Below, in pieces: positions 14,692 through 29,160 of a DNA stretch of 49,109 nt. Both the position numbers and the translations under genes were made by a program. The DNA is taken from assembly GCA_031274255.1 (NCBI GenBank), contig JAISQK010000268.1, positions 1 to 49,109 of the forward strand, read 5' to 3'. Numbering within the stretch: the stretch's first letter is position 1; every line of letters starts with the position of its first letter. The notes beneath the pieces were generated by a model, which did no database searches, was not told the origin of the DNA, and saw only the letters and a list, made by a program, of their open reading frames with translations. The DNA comes from Planctomycetaceae bacterium. GTDB lineage: Bacteria > Planctomycetota > Planctomycetia > Pirellulales > Thermoguttaceae.

Positions 14692-15504
14692 TCATCCGGC
14701 GGTGCGTTTTGCTCTCCAAAGCTGTAAAAGGTTGATCAGAAGCAACAGGACAAACGACACAATCAGCATAAAAACCGCGATGGCGACAGCTCCGGTGAAG
14801 TCGTACTGTTCCAGCCGGATGAAAATCAGCAGCGGGACGATTTCAGTCTTGTACGGCATGTTGCCGGCGATGAAAATCACACTGCCGTATTCACCGACCG
14901 CCCTTGCAAAGGCCATCGTGAAACCGGTCAGGAGTGCCGGGAGGAGACCGGGAAACAGCACTTTCCAAAAGGTCTGCCACCGCGTGGCGCCGAGACTTGC
15001 CGACGCTTCCTCAAGTTCTTTCTCAAGACCGGTAAGAGCAGGCTGCATTGTCCGGACAACAAACGGAAGTCCGATAAAAGTCAGCGCGACAAAAATCCCA
15101 AGCGGCGTTTCGGTGACCTGGACGGGAAGAAAACGTCCGAACCATCCCTGCTCCGAGTAAAGCATGCTTAAAGTGATTCCAGAGACCGCCGTGGGCACCG
15201 CAAAGGGAAGATCAATCATTGCGTCAAAGAATCTGCGTCCGGGAAAGGTGTACCGCACAAGCACCCAGGCGGCAATAAATCCGAAAAAGGCGTTCGCCAG
15301 CGCCGCCAGGAAGGAAATCCCGAATGTCACGCGGAACGCCGCCGTCACACGAGGGTCGCCGATGATCTCGCGGAACTCCTGCCAGCTCATGCCGGTCAGA
15401 TGGAGGAACAAACCAGCCAGCGGAATCAATACAATCAATCCCAGATAGCTCAGCGTGAACCCCATCGTTATCCCGAAACCGGGAAGTATGTTTTTCTTTC
15501 TCAT
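14692..15504 (-). CDS. cysT: sulfate/thiosulfate ABC transporter permease CysT-like
   Basis: The ABC permease EAA-like motif LEEASASLGATRWQTFWKVLFP is present. Six TM segments are predicted. No partner ATPase, second permease or binding protein is adjacent. Confidence 0.75.
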   Translation of the reverse strand: MRKKNILPGFGITMGFTLSYLGLIVLIPLAGLFLHLTGMSWQEFREIIGDPRVTAAFRVTFGISFLAALANAFFGFIAAWVLVRYTFPGRRFFDAMIDLPFAVPTAVSGITLSMLYSEQGWFGRFLPVQVTETPLGIFVALTFIGLPFVVRTMQPALTGLEKELEEASASLGATRWQTFWKVLFPGLLPALLTGFTMAFARAVGEYGSVIFIAGNMPYKTEIVPLLIFIRLEQYDFTGAVAIAVFMLIVSFVLLLLINLLQLWRAKRTAG

Positions 15505-15607
15505 CTTATCCGACAGGCTGTCCTTCCGCGGTGAAGATGAAACGAAACGTTTCCGAAACGAATGTCTGGTCCATTACAGGGTGGCAGATTTCTTCATCAT
15601 ATAAAAT

Positions 15608-16588
15608 TCAGGATAATGATGCTTTCTGTTTACGCTTCCACCCCCAACCGGCAAGTCCGCAGCTTCCAAGCGTCCAGAGCAAAAGGATTCCCGGCTCCGG
15701 TGTTGAGCCGCCGCCCAGCGGAGTCATGGGAGTAATGTAGAGAAGGTCCTGTGCCGTTGCACCATTTTGAGTGACATTCATCACAAAAATACTATAGTCT
15801 CCGATAAAATCATAATACGCACTTGGGTCATAGGTTTGCATCCAGAATGCGTTGGCTTCGGTGATATCGCTGAGACCCAGATTTCGGATTGCATATTGAT
15901 TTAACAGATACGTATAACCGGATGCGTTAGACGGTACGTCATCAATTATTCCCAAGTAGTACAAAACCGCGGCTCTCAGCCAGATAATGTCGGATTCCCG
16001 ACCTGCCAGTCCGCCTTCTCCCCACATGAAGCCACCCTGACCGTAGATTTCCTGCCCGACGGAATTGATTTGTTCCGTTGCATACATTTTGTAGAGAAAA
16101 GCGGCGCCAAGCGTCAGCGCATTACCATCCGAGGTTTTGGTCTGCCCGTTGGAATAGTTCAGTGTTCCTGTGGCATTAACTCCTCTGGTGGTTGTTCGGT
16201 TGGGAGAAACACAAAATGTTGAAAAATATTCCGAGCCGGGAGCGGCAGGATTCACTCCTCCCCAAGTATCATCCCTGGTGACTCCCGCCATGTTTACCCT
16301 GTATCCATAACCGCCTGACCTTCCGTAAGCGGAAGTATTTGCAAACTGCGTCCCTCTGTTCTGAACCCATACCTCGCCGGCAGCAAGCAAAGGAGGAAGA
16401 TCAGTACGGGGGGAATAAGTGGGATATTCCGGAGAGGTATGATCGAAAACGAGCCCCCTTCCGTTATTCATTGAATTGAACTCACTTACCGCTTGAGCGG
16501 CATCAAAATCGGCAAATGCCGGTTTTCCGGCGGAGAACAGACCGGCAACGGCTGTCAAAACAGCACAACACACTATCATTCGTTTCAT
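15608..16588 (-). CDS. PEP-CTERM sorting-domain protein, secreted
   Basis: A signal peptide MKRMIVCCAVLTAVAGLFSA is present. The C-terminus reads TPEPGILLLWTLGSCGLAGWGWKRKQK, which is a PEP motif followed by a TM helix and a basic tail. Confidence 0.7.
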   Translation of the reverse strand: MKRMIVCCAVLTAVAGLFSAGKPAFADFDAAQAVSEFNSMNNGRGLVFDHTSPEYPTYSPRTDLPPLLAAGEVWVQNRGTQFANTSAYGRSGGYGYRVNMAGVTRDDTWGGVNPAAPGSEYFSTFCVSPNRTTTRGVNATGTLNYSNGQTKTSDGNALTLGAAFLYKMYATEQINSVGQEIYGQGGFMWGEGGLAGRESDIIWLRAAVLYYLGIIDDVPSNASGYTYLLNQYAIRNLGLSDITEANAFWMQTYDPSAYYDFIGDYSIFVMNVTQNGATAQDLLYITPMTPLGGGSTPEPGILLLWTLGSCGLAGWGWKRKQKASLS

Positions 16589-16784
16589 AGCAATTTCCCA
16601 TATGGTTAAAGTGAACGGCTTGTCTAAAGAGCTAACAGCCTCTATTATAACCAAAGTCGTATTCTTATACAAGTAAAAATTTCATTTTCTTACATTTTTT
16701 GTATTCAATGGCAATTCAAATGAAGTTCATTAACTTAATAACTGTTGTTTCCGCCGCAGACGGTTTTTCCAATAGATCGAAATC

Positions 16785-17411
16785 TCATGAGTTGACGGCG
16801 GCCCAAGTCAGTCCTTCGATGGCGGTTTTTGCATAGAAATCAATTCCGGCACTTTTGGCCATCAGTTCGCTGGCGGCGGCACCTCCGACGCAAATTTTAA
16901 CGGAGTTCCGCAGATTCGCGTTCCGAATCGCTTCCATCGTGTCCATGACCGACTTGTAGCATGTCGTCAAAAGCAGACTCATTCCGAGGACATGCGGGCG
17001 GTGAATGCGGATTCCCTCAATGAATTGCTCCGGTGAAACATCAACCCCCAAATCAATCACATTGAAACCGCTGCTTCGGAAAACCATTGCGGTGATGTCT
17101 TTGCCGATGTCATGAATATCGTGCTGAACCGTGCCGATAATAATCGTTTTCCGGGACGCCGCGTTGTCGTTTTCCGATGTCATCAGCGGCTGAAGTTTCA
17201 ACATGACCTTTTTCATGATCATTCCGCCAAGCATCAGGTCTGGAATGAAAGCGTCGCCATGGTCGAAACGCTCCCCCAAAGCGATCATACCGGCATTGCA
17301 GACATCCACAATCACTTCCGCCGAAATGCCGCTGTCCAGCATTTCCTGAATTTTCTCCATGACAAACGGCTCGTCACAGTTTGCCATCGCGTCTTTAAGA
17401 TTCTCACTCAT
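16785..17411 (-). CDS. cobalamin (B12)-binding corrinoid protein (MtaC/MtbC-like)
   Basis: The DxHxxG motif is present (GTVQHDIHDIGKD). It has the Rossmann-like B12-binding domain with an N-terminal helical cap. Confidence 0.85.
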   Translation of the reverse strand: MSENLKDAMANCDEPFVMEKIQEMLDSGISAEVIVDVCNAGMIALGERFDHGDAFIPDLMLGGMIMKKVMLKLQPLMTSENDNAASRKTIIIGTVQHDIHDIGKDITAMVFRSSGFNVIDLGVDVSPEQFIEGIRIHRPHVLGMSLLLTTCYKSVMDTMEAIRNANLRNSVKICVGGAAASELMAKSAGIDFYAKTAIEGLTWAAVNS

Positions 17412-20734: not shown

Positions 20735-21439
20735 TTATAAAACGGTTCCGCTTGCAGGGTCAAATGCCGCACCGCGGCATAATTGCTGCACGAGTTTCAA
20801 TATTTGAATCAGCGTGTTCGGATCAAGCCGTTCCGCCTGTTCAAAATCGTCCGGCGTTTCCGCGTCGCACTCCAAACTCAACTTTTGGATGAAGCTACTG
20901 TAACGCGGAAACGTGATTTTGGCAATTCCACCTTTTCCCGAAAGATGCGTTTTTTCCTGTTCCATCTGCTCGAAGTGGAGAATTTCGATTTTTGCATCGA
21001 AATTTAGTCCCCGTTCGATGCTTTTCAGTTCCCTCGGACTTCCGGTATGCTTTCGGAGTTCCTCGGCAAGGGCGTGAAATTCCCGCCGTACCGCTTCTCC
21101 TTCCTGATAAACAATATCCATCGCAGCGTTATCGTTTGGGGAAAGGACCGTCACGGCCTCCAGGAGACCTGCGTTGTTTTTCTGCAAGTTTTTGATTTCA
21201 AGGAGGTTGTGTGTTTTCTGAATTTCAGCGGCAAGACGGTCCACGCCCGGACGGTTCTCCGACGCAAGCATCACAAGATACGTCTCCCGCCAACAATACC
21301 GGCTATCCTCAAACAGTGACATCGTTTCCTCGCACATGATCATACTTGCCGCATAACGGGCGAAACATCCGAGGAGTATTATACCGGATTTCAATGAAAA
21401 ATAATAGGTGTGATTTTTATCCGGCTGTTGAGGAAGCAC
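20735..21439 (-). CDS. hypothetical protein
   Basis: The ORF has coding-like composition and no recognised motifs. The start is uncertain (several in-frame Met within the first 40 codons). Confidence 0.4.
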   Translation of the reverse strand: MLPQQPDKNHTYYFSLKSGIILLGCFARYAASMIMCEETMSLFEDSRYCWRETYLVMLASENRPGVDRLAAEIQKTHNLLEIKNLQKNNAGLLEAVTVLSPNDNAAMDIVYQEGEAVRREFHALAEELRKHTGSPRELKSIERGLNFDAKIEILHFEQMEQEKTHLSGKGGIAKITFPRYSSFIQKLSLECDAETPDDFEQAERLDPNTLIQILKLVQQLCRGAAFDPASGTVL

Positions 21440-21500
21440 TTGATTCTGTTATAATGCTGGAAATTCTACAAACTTTTTCCGCGAAAGGAACATTTTCCTC

Positions 21501-22310
21501 ATGATTACCTACCTTGAAGGACGCCATTTTCCTGAAATTGATGGCAAAATCGTTATCGTTGTTGCAAAATTCAATAAAACCATCACCGACCGGCTTCTGG
21601 AAGGTGCGCTTGATGTCCTGAAGAAGGCCGGTGTCAGTGACTCCAATATCATCGTGGTCCGCGTGCCGGGAGCGTTTGAGATTCCTATGACGGCGAACCG
21701 CACCGCCCAGTTGTCGGACACCCTTGCCGTGATCTGTCTCGGAGCCGTTATCAAAGGGGAAACCACGCATGACCAGCATATCAACCGGGCTTTGAGCTGC
21801 GAGCTGATGAGTATCGGCTGCAAAACCGGAGTGCCGGTGATTTTCGGCGTCCTGACGTGTAACACGGTGGAACAGGCTCTGGCACGTTCCGCGCAAACGG
21901 ACGAATCCGACAGGGATAAATCGGTTCAGCCGCATACCGGCAATAAAGGTGCCGACGCGGCGGAAGCGGCACTGGAAATGATTCATCTTCTTGCACAGAT
22001 TCCCGATCCCGGTCCGGACCTCAGTGACATGGCCAACATGTTCATGCACACGCTTCTGGCAGGAAAAGAGCATCAGGAAGAGGATATTTTTGACAGCAAT
22101 TTTGATTATGACGACGATGACGACGATGACGATGAGGAAGAAGACGAGGAGGAATTCGGTTGCGGGGCCCGCGGTTGTTCGTGTCACCTTCATTCCGAAT
22201 TGCCTCCCAAGCCCCGTAAGACGAAAAAGGCGGTGAAGAAGTCAACCAAAAAGGCCGTGAAAAAAGCGGCGAAAAAGTCCGCAAAGAAATCCGTCAAGAA
22301 AAAAAGATGA
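21501..22310 (+). CDS. ribH: 6,7-dimethyl-8-ribityllumazine synthase fused to an acidic / Cys-His / Lys-Ala-rich C-terminal extension
   Basis: The first ~160 aa are a canonical lumazine synthase (IVVAKFN...VPGAFEIP...GETTHDQ...). The following ~110 aa contain DYDDDDDDDDEEEDEEE, GCGARGCSCHLH and AKKAVKK repeats. Confidence 0.85.
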   Translation: MITYLEGRHFPEIDGKIVIVVAKFNKTITDRLLEGALDVLKKAGVSDSNIIVVRVPGAFEIPMTANRTAQLSDTLAVICLGAVIKGETTHDQHINRALSCELMSIGCKTGVPVIFGVLTCNTVEQALARSAQTDESDRDKSVQPHTGNKGADAAEAALEMIHLLAQIPDPGPDLSDMANMFMHTLLAGKEHQEEDIFDSNFDYDDDDDDDDEEEDEEEFGCGARGCSCHLHSELPPKPRKTKKAVKKSTKKAVKKAAKKSAKKSVKKKR

Positions 22311-22524
22311 CTCACACTCAAGCCGGTTGACATTGCCTGTAAGAGCAGATCCATTCTCCCGACAAGGTTGCGGAGAGGGAAGCGAATGTTTGTTCCGTTA
22401 CGGGAGGAACTTCGCGGCGGATGTCCGTCCGGAATTTCGGTGTCCGAGTTTCACCGCCGATCGTTTTGCGTGAAATCCTTATGTGTTTCCTTTATTTTAC
22501 ACAAGTTTAATCATCTTTACCTCC

Positions 22525-22995
22525 ATGTTTTTTGAAGAAGACGATTTTTACGTTCCGACCTCAGGAAAGTTTGCCAACCGCAGCCGCGCAAGAGCGGCGG
22601 CATTTCAGATTCTTTATCAGGAGGAGTTGAATCCCCGGTCGTCGCAGAGCCGCTGGGTGGATACGTTTCTCGAACAGGAATTGCCCGACCACGAGGAGGT
22701 TCTCCGCTTTGCCCGGACGCTCATTGAAGGAGTCCGCAAAAATCAGCCCGAACTGGACAGACAGATTGCGGAACAGTCGCGGAACTGGTCGCTTTCGAGA
22801 ATGTCGGTGACGGACCGAAACATTCTACGGCAGTCGCTTTATGAACTTTTATATCTTGAAACCCCGAAACCGGTGGTGATTTCCCAGGCGATAGAACTTG
22901 CGAGGAGTTTCGGTTCCAACGATTCCGCCGCATTCGTCAACGGGATCCTCGACCGTTTCAACAAGACAAAAGTGTCTCCGAATCAGGAAGAATAG
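22525..22995 (+). CDS. nusB: transcription antitermination factor NusB
   Basis: NusB-family motifs are present (RARAAAFQILYQ...). The ribH-nusB gene order is the classic one. Confidence 0.85.
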   Translation: MFFEEDDFYVPTSGKFANRSRARAAAFQILYQEELNPRSSQSRWVDTFLEQELPDHEEVLRFARTLIEGVRKNQPELDRQIAEQSRNWSLSRMSVTDRNILRQSLYELLYLETPKPVVISQAIELARSFGSNDSAAFVNGILDRFNKTKVSPNQEE

Positions 22996-25871: not shown

Positions 25872-27008
25872 TCATCTCATGAGTCTTCCATGAAGATAGA
25901 CGTCAGGACCGACCGTTGTGACTTCCATTTTGGGAATTTCTACCGCCTCCAACATTTTTTCAAGCCCGATTCCTCCCAACGGTGTCACCGCATTTTCACC
26001 GCCGATGAGTTTGGGAGCAATAAAAATATGACACTCATCAATTAAACAGAAATCGAAAAGATGCCCCAACAATGTCCCGCCGCCTTCCATAAGAAGATTT
26101 GTCACCCCGCGATCCGCCAAATTTTGGAGAAGTTTCGTCATCCGCTGCGAATAGGAAATTTCCTCTAAAAGGAGAATTTCACACCCCATTTTTTTCAATT
26201 TACACGCATTAACATCATTCAAACCCGTACCGGCGGCAACAATCACCGGTATATCTTTTGCGGTTTGCGCAAGCTGACTTTCCGGCGGCAGTGACGCTTG
26301 AGAATCCCACACCACACGAAGCGGCATTCTCTGCGGTGCGTTTCCTTCCGGCAGCCGAACGGTGAGGAGCGGATCGTCGATTTTTGCGGTCCGCGAACCG
26401 ACCATAACAGCGTCCATACGGCTGCGGATTTTATGTACGATTTCCCGCGACATTTCCGACGTGATCCATCGGCTCGAACCTGTTCGGGCGGCGATTTTTC
26501 CGTCGAGAGTCATCGCCCATTTCGCGTGAATCCAGGGACGCCGCTGCTGAGTCCGCATCAAATACGGGGCGTTCAACTCTGTCGCTTCGTCCGCCAGACA
26601 ACCGAGTGAAACGTCCATTCCCGCAGCTTGAAGACGGGCGATTCCTCCGCCGTCAACAGGAGGAAACGGGTCACGCATCGCCGCGACAATCCGCCGGATT
26701 CCGGTTCGGAAAATCGCCTCGGTACAGGGAGGTGTTTTGCCGTAATGACAGCATGGCTCAAGAGTGACATAAAGCGTTGCATTGCCGGTTGATTCCGCGG
26801 ATTCTGCGGCGGAACGAATCGCCTCCACTTCCGCGTGAGAACCGCCGAACGCCTTGTGGTATCCTTCACCGATGATCTTTCCATCGCGGACGATGACGCA
26901 ACCAACCATCGGGTTCGGCTCGACAGCACCCTCGCCGCGTGAAGCAAGCTCCAATGCCCGCCGCATGAACCGAATATCATCTTCCGAAAAAACGCTCATT
27001 TTATCCAT
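25872..27008 (-). CDS. ribD: bifunctional riboflavin biosynthesis protein RibD (deaminase/reductase)
   Basis: The CMP/dCMP deaminase zinc motif is present (HAEVEA...PCCHYGKTPPC). The C-terminal part is a RibD reductase domain. The likely start is MDKMSVF at 27008. Confidence 0.9.
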   Translation of the reverse strand: MDKMSVFSEDDIRFMRRALELASRGEGAVEPNPMVGCVIVRDGKIIGEGYHKAFGGSHAEVEAIRSAAESAESTGNATLYVTLEPCCHYGKTPPCTEAIFRTGIRRIVAAMRDPFPPVDGGGIARLQAAGMDVSLGCLADEATELNAPYLMRTQQRRPWIHAKWAMTLDGKIAARTGSSRWITSEMSREIVHKIRSRMDAVMVGSRTAKIDDPLLTVRLPEGNAPQRMPLRVVWDSQASLPPESQLAQTAKDIPVIVAAGTGLNDVNACKLKKMGCEILLLEEISYSQRMTKLLQNLADRGVTNLLMEGGGTLLGHLFDFCLIDECHIFIAPKLIGGENAVTPLGGIGLEKMLEAVEIPKMEVTTVGPDVYLHGRLMR

Positions 27009-27206
27009 TTTTTCTACAGAGACATAAATTAAAAACGTAACGGTATGATTCCCCGTTCCAGACAAGTAAAACAAGGAGAGACATTTTAGCAAAAATTCAC
27101 GGCAAATGAACATCCGGCGTAAAATGCCGTAAAATAATTGATCTTTCAAAAAAATCCGTTGTGTGGTAAAATCACAATAACGATTACAGTACAAGGAGGT
27201 ATTTTG

Positions 27207-27854
27207 GTGTCCGTAAATCAAAAAAGGCAAAATTCGTTTTTTACCGCCGTTTCCAATGTTCTTCGCGGGATGATCGTCTTCACTGTTTTAATCAGTCTGC
27301 CGATTTTTGCAATTTTCTGGGACAAAATGCCGGAAGGAGTCCAAAAAGGGCTTAACCGGTTTCGTTATTTTGTGCATAACATCACAGAAGACACCACATC
27401 AAATGACGTGTCAGAAGTTCCGTTATCGGTTCCGTCACCCGTTGCATTGCCCTCCGCTGACAATACGGTGATGAATCGGACGGTAATGAATCCGTCTCCG
27501 GCGTTGACAACCGTTCTTCCTCAAAAAAAACCGCAACCTCTTGCAGCGATTCAACTTGTGTCCAATACTCAGTCGCAGTATGCGAATGCACTTCAATATG
27601 GACCGGAGACACAGTCCTCACAAAGTGCAGAAGTTGTACAGATCGAAATGGAGTTGCAACGGCTTGGAGCGAAAAACTGCCGATTGGAAAATTGGGGAAA
27701 TGACGGGCTTTTCTACAGATATTCCTGTTTCGTTTCTCCAAGTCATGGTAACGAGCGGTTCCGGCGGTATTTTCAGGAAATCGCGTCGTCTCCGGCAGAA
27801 GCAATGAAAAAAGTACATGAGAGAGTCACTCTGTGGCAACAGGAATGGCGTTAA
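27207..27854 (+). CDS. hypothetical membrane-anchored protein
   Basis: A GTG start lies 7 nt after the RBS aaggagg. One TM segment is predicted. Its stop abuts the scpB start. Confidence 0.4.
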   Translation: MSVNQKRQNSFFTAVSNVLRGMIVFTVLISLPIFAIFWDKMPEGVQKGLNRFRYFVHNITEDTTSNDVSEVPLSVPSPVALPSADNTVMNRTVMNPSPALTTVLPQKKPQPLAAIQLVSNTQSQYANALQYGPETQSSQSAEVVQIEMELQRLGAKNCRLENWGNDGLFYRYSCFVSPSHGNERFRRYFQEIASSPAEAMKKVHERVTLWQQEWR

Positions 27855-28812: not shown

Positions 28813-29160
28813 GTGAGCGTGACTAAATTGTTTGTCTCCGGCGTCTATGGTGTGAATAAAGACTTTGTTAAAAAGCGCACATTGCAATCTTCGAAAATGT
28901 TTCCTGTCATGATGAGCAATGACAGTGAAGACCTTGATGAAGAGGAATGGGAAGATGACGATGATGAAGACGAAGAATGGGAAGATGAAGACGAAGAATG
29001 GGATGATGATTGGGACGACGAAGAGGAAGACGAGGAAGATGAAGAGGAATGGGATGATGAAGACGAGGAAGAATGGGAAGAAGTAGAAGACGAAGAAGAT
29101 GAGGAAGAAGATTGGGATGATGCCGACGAAGAAGATGAGGAAGATATCGAAGAAGAGTAA
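28813..29160 (+). CDS. extremely acidic Asp/Glu/Trp-rich low-complexity protein (hypothetical)
   Basis: A GTG start is present with RBS aaagga. The C-terminal ~85 aa are almost entirely D/E with W roughly every 6-10 residues (EEWEDDDDEDEEWEDEDEEWDDDWDD...). The underlying DNA is a cryptic (GAN)n repeat. Confidence 0.5.
   Translation: MSVTKLFVSGVYGVNKDFVKKRTLQSSKMFPVMMSNDSEDLDEEEWEDDDDEDEEWEDEDEEWDDDWDDEEEDEEDEEEWDDEDEEEWEEVEDEEDEEEDWDDADEEDEEDIEEE

Follow-up and report, generated by a model that had tools for sequence, protein, structure and literature searches.

A conserved, charge-segregated C-terminal tail on lumazine synthase in a clade of Planctomycetota

Lumazine synthase (6,7-dimethyl-8-ribityllumazine synthase, RibH) is a model self-assembling cage, much engineered for encapsulation and vaccine display. 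A 49,109-nt stretch of Planctomycetaceae DNA (contig JAISQK010000268.1, hereafter the window) encodes a RibH in which the catalytic core runs on into a long, highly charged C-terminal extension, and the question that this locus raises is whether such an extension is real and, if it is, what it does on a metabolic enzyme. An earlier note, made from the letters of the sequence, had described ~110 extra residues comprising a poly-Asp/Glu run, a Cys/His cluster and histone H1-like Lys/Ala repeats, and had proposed a nucleic acid-binding tail on a capsid-forming 60-mer, possibly with a packaging role. The gene is a single uninterrupted open reading frame (ORF) on the forward strand, from the ATG at 21501 to the stop codon at 22308-22310, and encodes 269 amino acids. 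Its extension spans residues 167-269, or 103 residues, close to the length first proposed, and contains exactly the three tail strings then quoted (DYDDDDDDDDEEEDEEE, GCGARGCSCHLH and PKPRKTKKAVKKSTKKAVKKAAKKSAKKSVKKKR). Coordinates given below are those of the whole window and residue numbers those of the 269-residue protein.

The enzyme and the distribution of its extension

The catalytic core of RibH occupies residues 1-166 (21501..21998, + strand). Residues 16-164 match the Pfam DMRL_synthase family (PF00885) with an E-value of 8.6e-48 and a score of 162.2 bits (cutoff 26.7), and the protein scores 134.9 bits against the equivalog model TIGR00114, whose cutoff is 84.6. The AlphaFold2 (AF2) model of the core has pLDDT values above 90, and a Foldseek search of the core against solved lumazine synthases gives TM-scores of 0.90-0.95 and root mean square deviations of 1.4-1.7 Å, with the icosahedral-type enzymes ranking first. 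Residues F22, E58, H88, R127 and K135 of the Aquifex aeolicus lumazine synthase (AaLS) correspond to F24, E60, H90, R129 and K149 in the window RibH, and E60, H90, R129 and K149 are invariant in an alignment of 92 sequences. As judged by homology, the identity of the window gene as a genuine RibH, with the lumazine synthase fold and intact active-site residues, is established, and the enzyme chemistry is probably unchanged in tail-bearing members. The best sequence and fold matches are the type I (icosahedral-type) lumazine synthases of bacteria and plants, such as AaLS (1HQK), Bacillus subtilis RibH (1RVV) and the Salmonella enzyme (3MK3), which have in common with the window protein the fold, the catalytic residues, the N-terminal MxxYEG strand and the hydrophobic residues of the pentamer interface; the placement of nusB next to ribH is likewise common. 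None of the solved structures, however, has the 12-residue loop insertion (see below) or the 103-residue disordered, charged C-terminal tail of the window RibH.

The extension is far from peculiar to this contig. All of the 120 best homologs, drawn from NCBI, JGI, ENA and Logan assemblies and 199-315 residues in length, carry a C-terminal extension within the same ORF. A contrast set was provided by a scan of species-representative genomes, which covered at least 80 RibH loci from many phyla. Among the matches listed from these other genomes, 75 of 80 RibH proteins stop within nine residues of the core, in keeping with the usual length of ~155 residues given in the earlier note, and the short-ended proteins among them include those of Schlesneria, Adhaeretor, Stieleria, Lacipirellula and Rubripirellula. 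The possibility of an artefact, in which a frameshift introduced by sequencing or assembly had fused ribH with a distinct ORF 3' of it, draws some weight from the origin of the window as one contig of a metagenome-assembled genome (MAG), but is negligible: it is effectively ruled out by the 120 homologs from independent assemblies with core and tail in one ORF, by the position of nusB directly after ribH in all contexts examined, and by the lack of any alternative-frame gene. The fusion proposed in the earlier note is therefore genuine.

In a neighbour-joining tree built from core columns only, the tail-bearing RibH proteins group as a single clade in 94 of 100 bootstrap replicates. Core identity inside this clade falls to 53%, while the nearest tail-less sequences average 55-59%. 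The tailed members come from MAGs labelled Planctomycetaceae, Thermoguttaceae and Planctomycetia. The tail is thus a clade-defining trait of some depth, neither private to this genome nor phylum-wide. It is common in the sense that it marks a whole clade, which the earlier note had named, together with existing annotation in related genomes, as grounds for refuting its proposal, but it has not been annotated as such: the database entry for the window protein reads lumazine synthase and nothing more. Our literature search found no paper on a tail-bearing RibH clade, which is apparently an undescribed variant of the enzyme.

Additional RibH tails occur elsewhere, independently of those of the clade. 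A RibH from an Actinomycetota MAG (L038, 6001-6615) ends in a 58-residue tail of 'PKEA' repeats, and one from a Selenomonadaceae MAG (L019, 6001-6483) has a basic tail of 23 residues. RibH is also found on contigs that bear a Nitrosopumilus or a Nitrospirota MAG label (L012 and L018) and may be mis-binned; the protein on L012 closely resembles Pirellulales RibH, for example that of Rubripirellula (L020).

Design and charge pattern of the tail

Five elements, in the same order, make up the tail design of the clade: first a linker with an invariant Pro, then a helix rich in Met and Phe, a block of acidic and aromatic residues, a hydrophobic-Pro-(K/R)K junction and a Lys-rich end. In the window protein, the linker is IPDPGPD (residues 167-173; 21999..22019, +), whose P168 is the invariant residue; three tail-less relatives (L001, L002 and L006) terminate at '...KLP', right at this position. 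It leads into the helix, LSDMANMFMHTLLAGKE (residues 174-190; 22020..22070, +), which AF2 models with pLDDT values of ~71-76, has a hydrophobic moment of 0.31, and includes an 'LSxMFxxxM' pattern that is conserved in the tail alignment. The acidic/aromatic block, which includes DYDDDDDDDDEEEDEEE, follows at residues 191-219 (22071..22157, +), is present in 120 of 120 homologs with a median of 22 Asp/Glu residues, and is encoded over tandem DNA repeats of 9 and 15 bp. At the far end, the junction ELPPKPRK and the Lys-rich block that contains PKPRKTKKAVKKSTKKAVKKAAKKSAKKSVKKKR, with its seven KKxx repeats, make up residues 232-269 (22194..22307, +), encoded over tandem repeats of 12 and 24 bp. 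A basic end of this kind occurs in 114 of 120 homologs, and the junction Pro and two Lys columns are at least 90% conserved in the tail alignment. The AF2 model shows no structure for residues 191-269, where pLDDT is 45-55, and this part of the tail is predicted to be disordered.

Between the two charged blocks of the window protein lies the Cys/His cluster GCGARGCSCHLH (residues 220-231; 22158..22193, +), read in the sequence. It was present as the earlier note had described, although it does not extend to the clade. The nearest homolog (P0002), with 72% identity over the aligned region, does not have it, and of the 120 tails just five have three or more Cys residues, namely that of the window protein (P0001) and those of one subclade (P0051, P0069, P0099 and P0102), whose motif, CDDEDCxSCxFYxDC, is at the same position but different from the window cluster. 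On these grounds, a conserved metal site was rejected as a clade feature. The cluster is a lineage-specific insert between the charged blocks, as its pattern of occurrence in the aligned tails indicates, and stands outside the conserved design, although it may have a role within its own lineage.

The charge of the tail is both high and strongly segregated. In the window protein, net charge amounts to -19 over residues 191-225 and to +18 over the Lys block at 232-269; for the tail as a whole it is -4, or -0.04 per residue, and the charged fraction is 0.45. The Lys block itself is 38 residues long and 45% Lys, with a period of four (KKxx, seven times) and no Pro inside the repeats. Charge segregation, expressed as kappa, is 0.66 against 0.15 for shuffled sequences (z = 10.7). 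The same pattern is found across the clade, where tails of 33-142 residues (median 93.5) have medians of 22 Asp/Glu and 17 Lys/Arg residues and a net charge of -5. In 114 of 119 tails the acidic centroid comes before the basic one, counted from the N terminus; kappa has a median of 0.54, and in 116 of the 119 it is higher than in any of 200 shuffles. Acidic and basic counts rise together (r = 0.68; partial r = 0.37 when controlling for other residues), and the standard deviation of net charge is 5.0 as opposed to the 8.8 expected if the two counts were independent, both comparisons being uncorrected for relatedness. Meanwhile, the flavour of the basic block changes by subclade, from KKSAKK to GGFGGK to a Ser/His/Lys-rich type, and is positive throughout. 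Because the block drifts in composition yet stays positive, its function, if any, would be electrostatic rather than sequence-specific. Such drift with retained charge, over tandem DNA repeats, reads as a signature of selection acting on the charge pattern and not on the sequence.

The design appears to belong to this gene and is no chance pattern. Among 2280 ORFs of at least 100 residues in 989 kb, made up of the window and the fetched loci, none besides the RibH of the clade has an acidic block followed by a basic C terminus; no other ORF with the same charge design was found elsewhere in the window or in four related loci. A genome-wide habit of Lys tails was consequently rejected. The view of the tail as a known domain was also rejected, as an hmmscan of the tail at E <= 10 returned weak compositional matches alone, to YL1, IFRD, SDA1 and CDC45, all eukaryotic acidic/basic nuclear proteins.

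A profile made from the tail only and searched against 1.84 billion representatives gave eight matches: the RibH P0122, described below, a TPR protein (P0124), and otherwise unrelated low-complexity proteins. The same profile was uninformative against a set of 5.8 billion proteins, where candidates were swamped by low-complexity words. P0124 is a 188-residue TPR-repeat protein on a 964-bp JGI metagenome contig that ends in the RibH-tail design (PPPPFMFEDDDEDFEDFDEDEEDFDPFFEPPQPKKKAKKAKKKKR); a search for its homologs found none.

Loop insertion, assembly and candidate roles of the tail

A further departure from the canonical enzyme bears on how the tail would be displayed. The alpha4-alpha5 loop contains a clade-specific insertion of ~12 residues at about residues 133-146 (TDESDRDKSVQPHT; 21897..21938, +), between R129 and G147, which leaves a 12-residue gap against every icosahedral lumazine synthase in the PDB, as seen with 4V7G, 1C2Y, 9EZ8, 3MK3 and 1HQK. 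The canonical short loop of T=1 60-mer enzymes (G-T/G-K-A/H-G-N) is not present. D139-K140 within the insertion are invariant in 92 homologs, and AF2 pLDDT is low there. In AaLS, the equivalent loop (129-133) is located where pentamer meets pentamer and controls the closing of the cage (PMC13376624), and a 4-residue insertion in it converts the 60-mer to a 180-mer (PMC7369331). Since the 12-residue insertion sits in this interface loop, the canonical T=1 60-mer, which the earlier note had taken for granted, cannot be assumed. Nevertheless, higher-order assembly is still plausible because the pre-C3 interface residues are retained: L26, R29, L121 and I125 of AaLS, whose roles in a patch that binds an amphipathic helix have been described (PMC13376624), correspond to I28, R31, V123 and L127 here.

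Lumazine synthase exposes both of its termini on the outside of the capsid, and its assembly is not disturbed by fusions to the C terminus (PMC7369331, PMC8414670). Given that the C termini face outward in published structures, the tail would decorate the exterior of the particle. We tentatively favour a reading of the tail as an outward-facing, multivalent, charge-segregated electrostatic tether that governs the placement of enzyme particles or their clustering. The RibH of a deep Planctomycetota clade has gained the loop insertion of ~12 residues and a tail of 33-142 residues that is predicted to be disordered, and under this proposal each pentamer or cage would display 5-60 near-neutral, strongly charge-segregated tails on its outer face. 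The Lys block may bind polyanions, whether nucleoid DNA, RNA or polyphosphate, and the charge-matched acidic block may compete in cis or pair in trans with the Lys blocks of neighbouring particles. The tail would in this way control the position or the clustering of the particle, and no nucleic acid would be packaged inside the capsid. A more specific form of the proposal, which we consider rather improbable as stated, has a lumazine synthase particle, possibly of non-canonical size through the loop insertion, bearing 5-60 or more block-polyampholyte tails, through which riboflavin-synthesis particles would cluster reversibly, under the control of salt or polyanions, or be tethered to the nucleoid or RNA.

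Three groups of known proteins bear on the tether. Tails that are disordered, C-terminal and built of Lys/Ala-rich tandem repeats are found on Pseudomonas AlgP and PhaF (KPAA repeats), on chlamydial Hc1/Hc2, and on mycobacterial Ku and HupB (PAKKA). With their Lys-rich, H1-like tails, AlgP and PhaF anchor granules of polyphosphate and of polyhydroxyalkanoate to the nucleoid (PMC9239181), the Lys-rich repeats of mycobacterial Ku modulate DNA binding (PMC3553676), and the untailed RibH capsids of B. subtilis are excluded from the nucleoid (PMC8414670). The Lys block of the window protein differs from these tails in being short, in having Pro-free repeats, in following an equal acidic block within a tail that is not net cationic, and in residing on a metabolic enzyme. 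A second likeness, architectural only, is to eukaryotic nucleophosmin/nucleoplasmin and to the KKE/D-tailed small nucleolar ribonucleoprotein (snoRNP) proteins, which also join an oligomeric core to disordered acidic and basic tracts, although they are unrelated to RibH in fold and lineage. Nucleophosmin has a pentameric core with disordered acidic and basic tracts. The Lys-rich KKE/D tails of snoRNP proteins act electrostatically in nucleic acid-rich condensates (PMC11528048). The third group comprises engineered forms of AaLS (AaLS-IDEA, AaLS-neg/AaLS-13, and the lambda-N-fused nucleocapsids 7A4F-7A4J), which the natural protein resembles in joining a loop insertion to added charge. In the engineered forms, loop insertions and added charge alter assembly and allow binding of charged cargo (PMC7369331). 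Their charges or peptides, introduced by mutation or circular permutation, face the lumen, whereas the addition to the window RibH is at the native, outward C terminus and has both charge signs.

Several observations weigh against the tether. The tail is slightly net acidic, with a clade median of -5, and is no simple polycation. Six of the 120 homologs are without a basic end, some of them perhaps truncated. The charge-balance statistics take no account of phylogenetic relatedness, and low-complexity tails on an exposed terminus can drift neutrally. Finally, the loop insertion, as it appears in the alignments, leaves the assembly state uncertain and with it the valency of the tail.

A different role for the extension, possible although unlikely, is regulation of assembly. 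In that case, helix 174-190 would cap the hydrophobic pre-C3 patch in the manner of the cage-localisation helix of riboflavin synthase and, jointly with the loop insertion, determine how far pentamers or cages prevail, leaving the charged blocks to serve mainly as solubilising or repulsive bristles. Retention of the pre-C3 residues is consistent with such a role, as are the standing of the helix as the best-conserved and best-predicted element of the tail, the co-occurrence of loop insertion and tail in the clade, and the effect of the 4-residue insertion on the size of AaLS particles. However, the riboflavin synthase helix binds from the lumen side while the C terminus of lumazine synthase is outside, the three tail-less relatives mentioned above (L001, L002 and L006) have the loop insertion all the same, and the conserved order and balance of acidic and basic blocks are left unexplained. 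The loop itself can be expanded within the clade: P0122, a tailed RibH of 265 residues from a Planctomycetaceae MAG, has an alpha4-alpha5 insertion of ~30 residues.

Alternatively, and again with some but not much likelihood, the tail may consist of low-complexity repeats, generated by slippage and tolerated at the solvent-exposed C terminus of RibH, with no specific function. Short tandem DNA repeats do underlie both charged blocks, tail length is highly variable (33-142 residues) and sequence turnover fast, six clade members make do without a basic end, and the unrelated charged tails of the Actinomycetota and Selenomonadaceae proteins mark the terminus as permissive. Neutral drift does not readily account for an ordered design that is kept although cores have diverged to 53% identity, for the conservation of the junction Pro and the helix motif, for the balance of acidic and basic charges, or for the restriction of the design to a single gene across ~1 Mb. 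Should the tail nonetheless prove to be a neutral decoration, it would be an annotation curiosity only.

Very improbable is the interpretation nearest to that of the earlier note, in which an H1/Hc1-like nucleoid protein moonlights on a capsid that packages nucleic acid inside, as a virus would. The resemblance from which it started is partly borne out, as the KKxx periodicity of the Lys block and its Lys/Ala/Ser composition are indeed H1-like. Engineered lumazine synthase cages with cationic peptides are able to package RNA, and 7a4f-7a4j are among the PDB matches of the window RibH. Nevertheless, neither the tail nor its basic block matched Hc1 (PF07432), Hc2 (PF07382) or any other histone-like family in an hmmscan at E <= 10, the tail is net acidic (-4), and an acidic block of equal size stands ahead of the Lys block. 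With the loop insertion present, a canonical 60-mer is uncertain, and the position of the C termini on the outer surface of lumazine synthase cages argues against internal packaging by the tail. The interpretation as H1-like tail plus packaging capsid is thus only partly supported.

If the tether is correct, the clade would show a natural modification of the lumazine synthase scaffold that combines an interface-loop insertion with an outward, charge-balanced disordered tail, and could reveal a way in which bacteria position or cluster a metabolic enzyme particle. The short list of bacterial housekeeping enzymes with conserved, charge-patterned disordered regions would likewise gain a clear example of defined phylogeny. 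Particles clustered or tethered as in the more specific form above would amount to the bacterial equivalent of a nucleophosmin-type condensate scaffold, and to a natural parallel of the supercharged lumazine synthase cages that have been engineered.

Gene neighbourhood

Downstream of ribH, its partner nusB (22483..22995, +) is identified by Pfam NusB (E 5.3e-34) and TIGR01951. Among four tail-bearing loci (L081, L083, L084 and L085), nusB is next to ribH in all four, ftsY comes next in three, and ribBA is present once. The order ribH-nusB-ftsY also occurs in the tail-less Planctomycetota loci L001, L002, L006 and L017, and in tail-less relatives nusB directly follows ribH with no separate tail ORF 3' of it. 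This shared synteny, in conjunction with the single-ORF homologs, makes the long ribH an ortholog of the ordinary gene and not a paralog or frameshift product. Upstream, a promoter-like site (TTGAGG-16 nt-TATAAT with a TG upstream; 21428..21455, +) lies ~45 nt 5' of the ribH start, matching 10 of 12 hexamer positions in a consensus scan; it is a pattern match only. No flavin mononucleotide (FMN) riboswitch, or any other Rfam family, was matched within the window. A second riboflavin gene, ribD, is found at 25872-27230 (-). As listed, its ORF is 452 residues long with the deaminase domain beginning at residue 83, so that either the listed TTG start is too far upstream or the protein has an N-terminal extension.

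Divergent from ribH is an ORF of 234 residues (20735-21439, -) that has no Pfam or NCBIfam match and is not beside ribH in the related loci examined. Between scpB and the RNase PH gene, a small ORF (28813-29160, +), also with no Pfam match, encodes a protein whose last ~80 residues are nearly pure Asp/Glu with regularly spaced Trp (EEWEDDDDEDEEWEDEDEEWDDDWDDEEEDEE). In L083 (7273-9804) and L085 (7649-9958), the rho gene immediately 5' of the long ribH encodes 843 and 769 residues, about twice the canonical length of Rho, a sign that a second housekeeping protein in these genomes may have taken up large insertions. In L081, the closest relative, bacterial microcompartment (BMC) shell genes, encoding two BMC-domain proteins, occur with PTAC and acetate kinase genes at 14942-16807, ~6 kb downstream of the long ribH.

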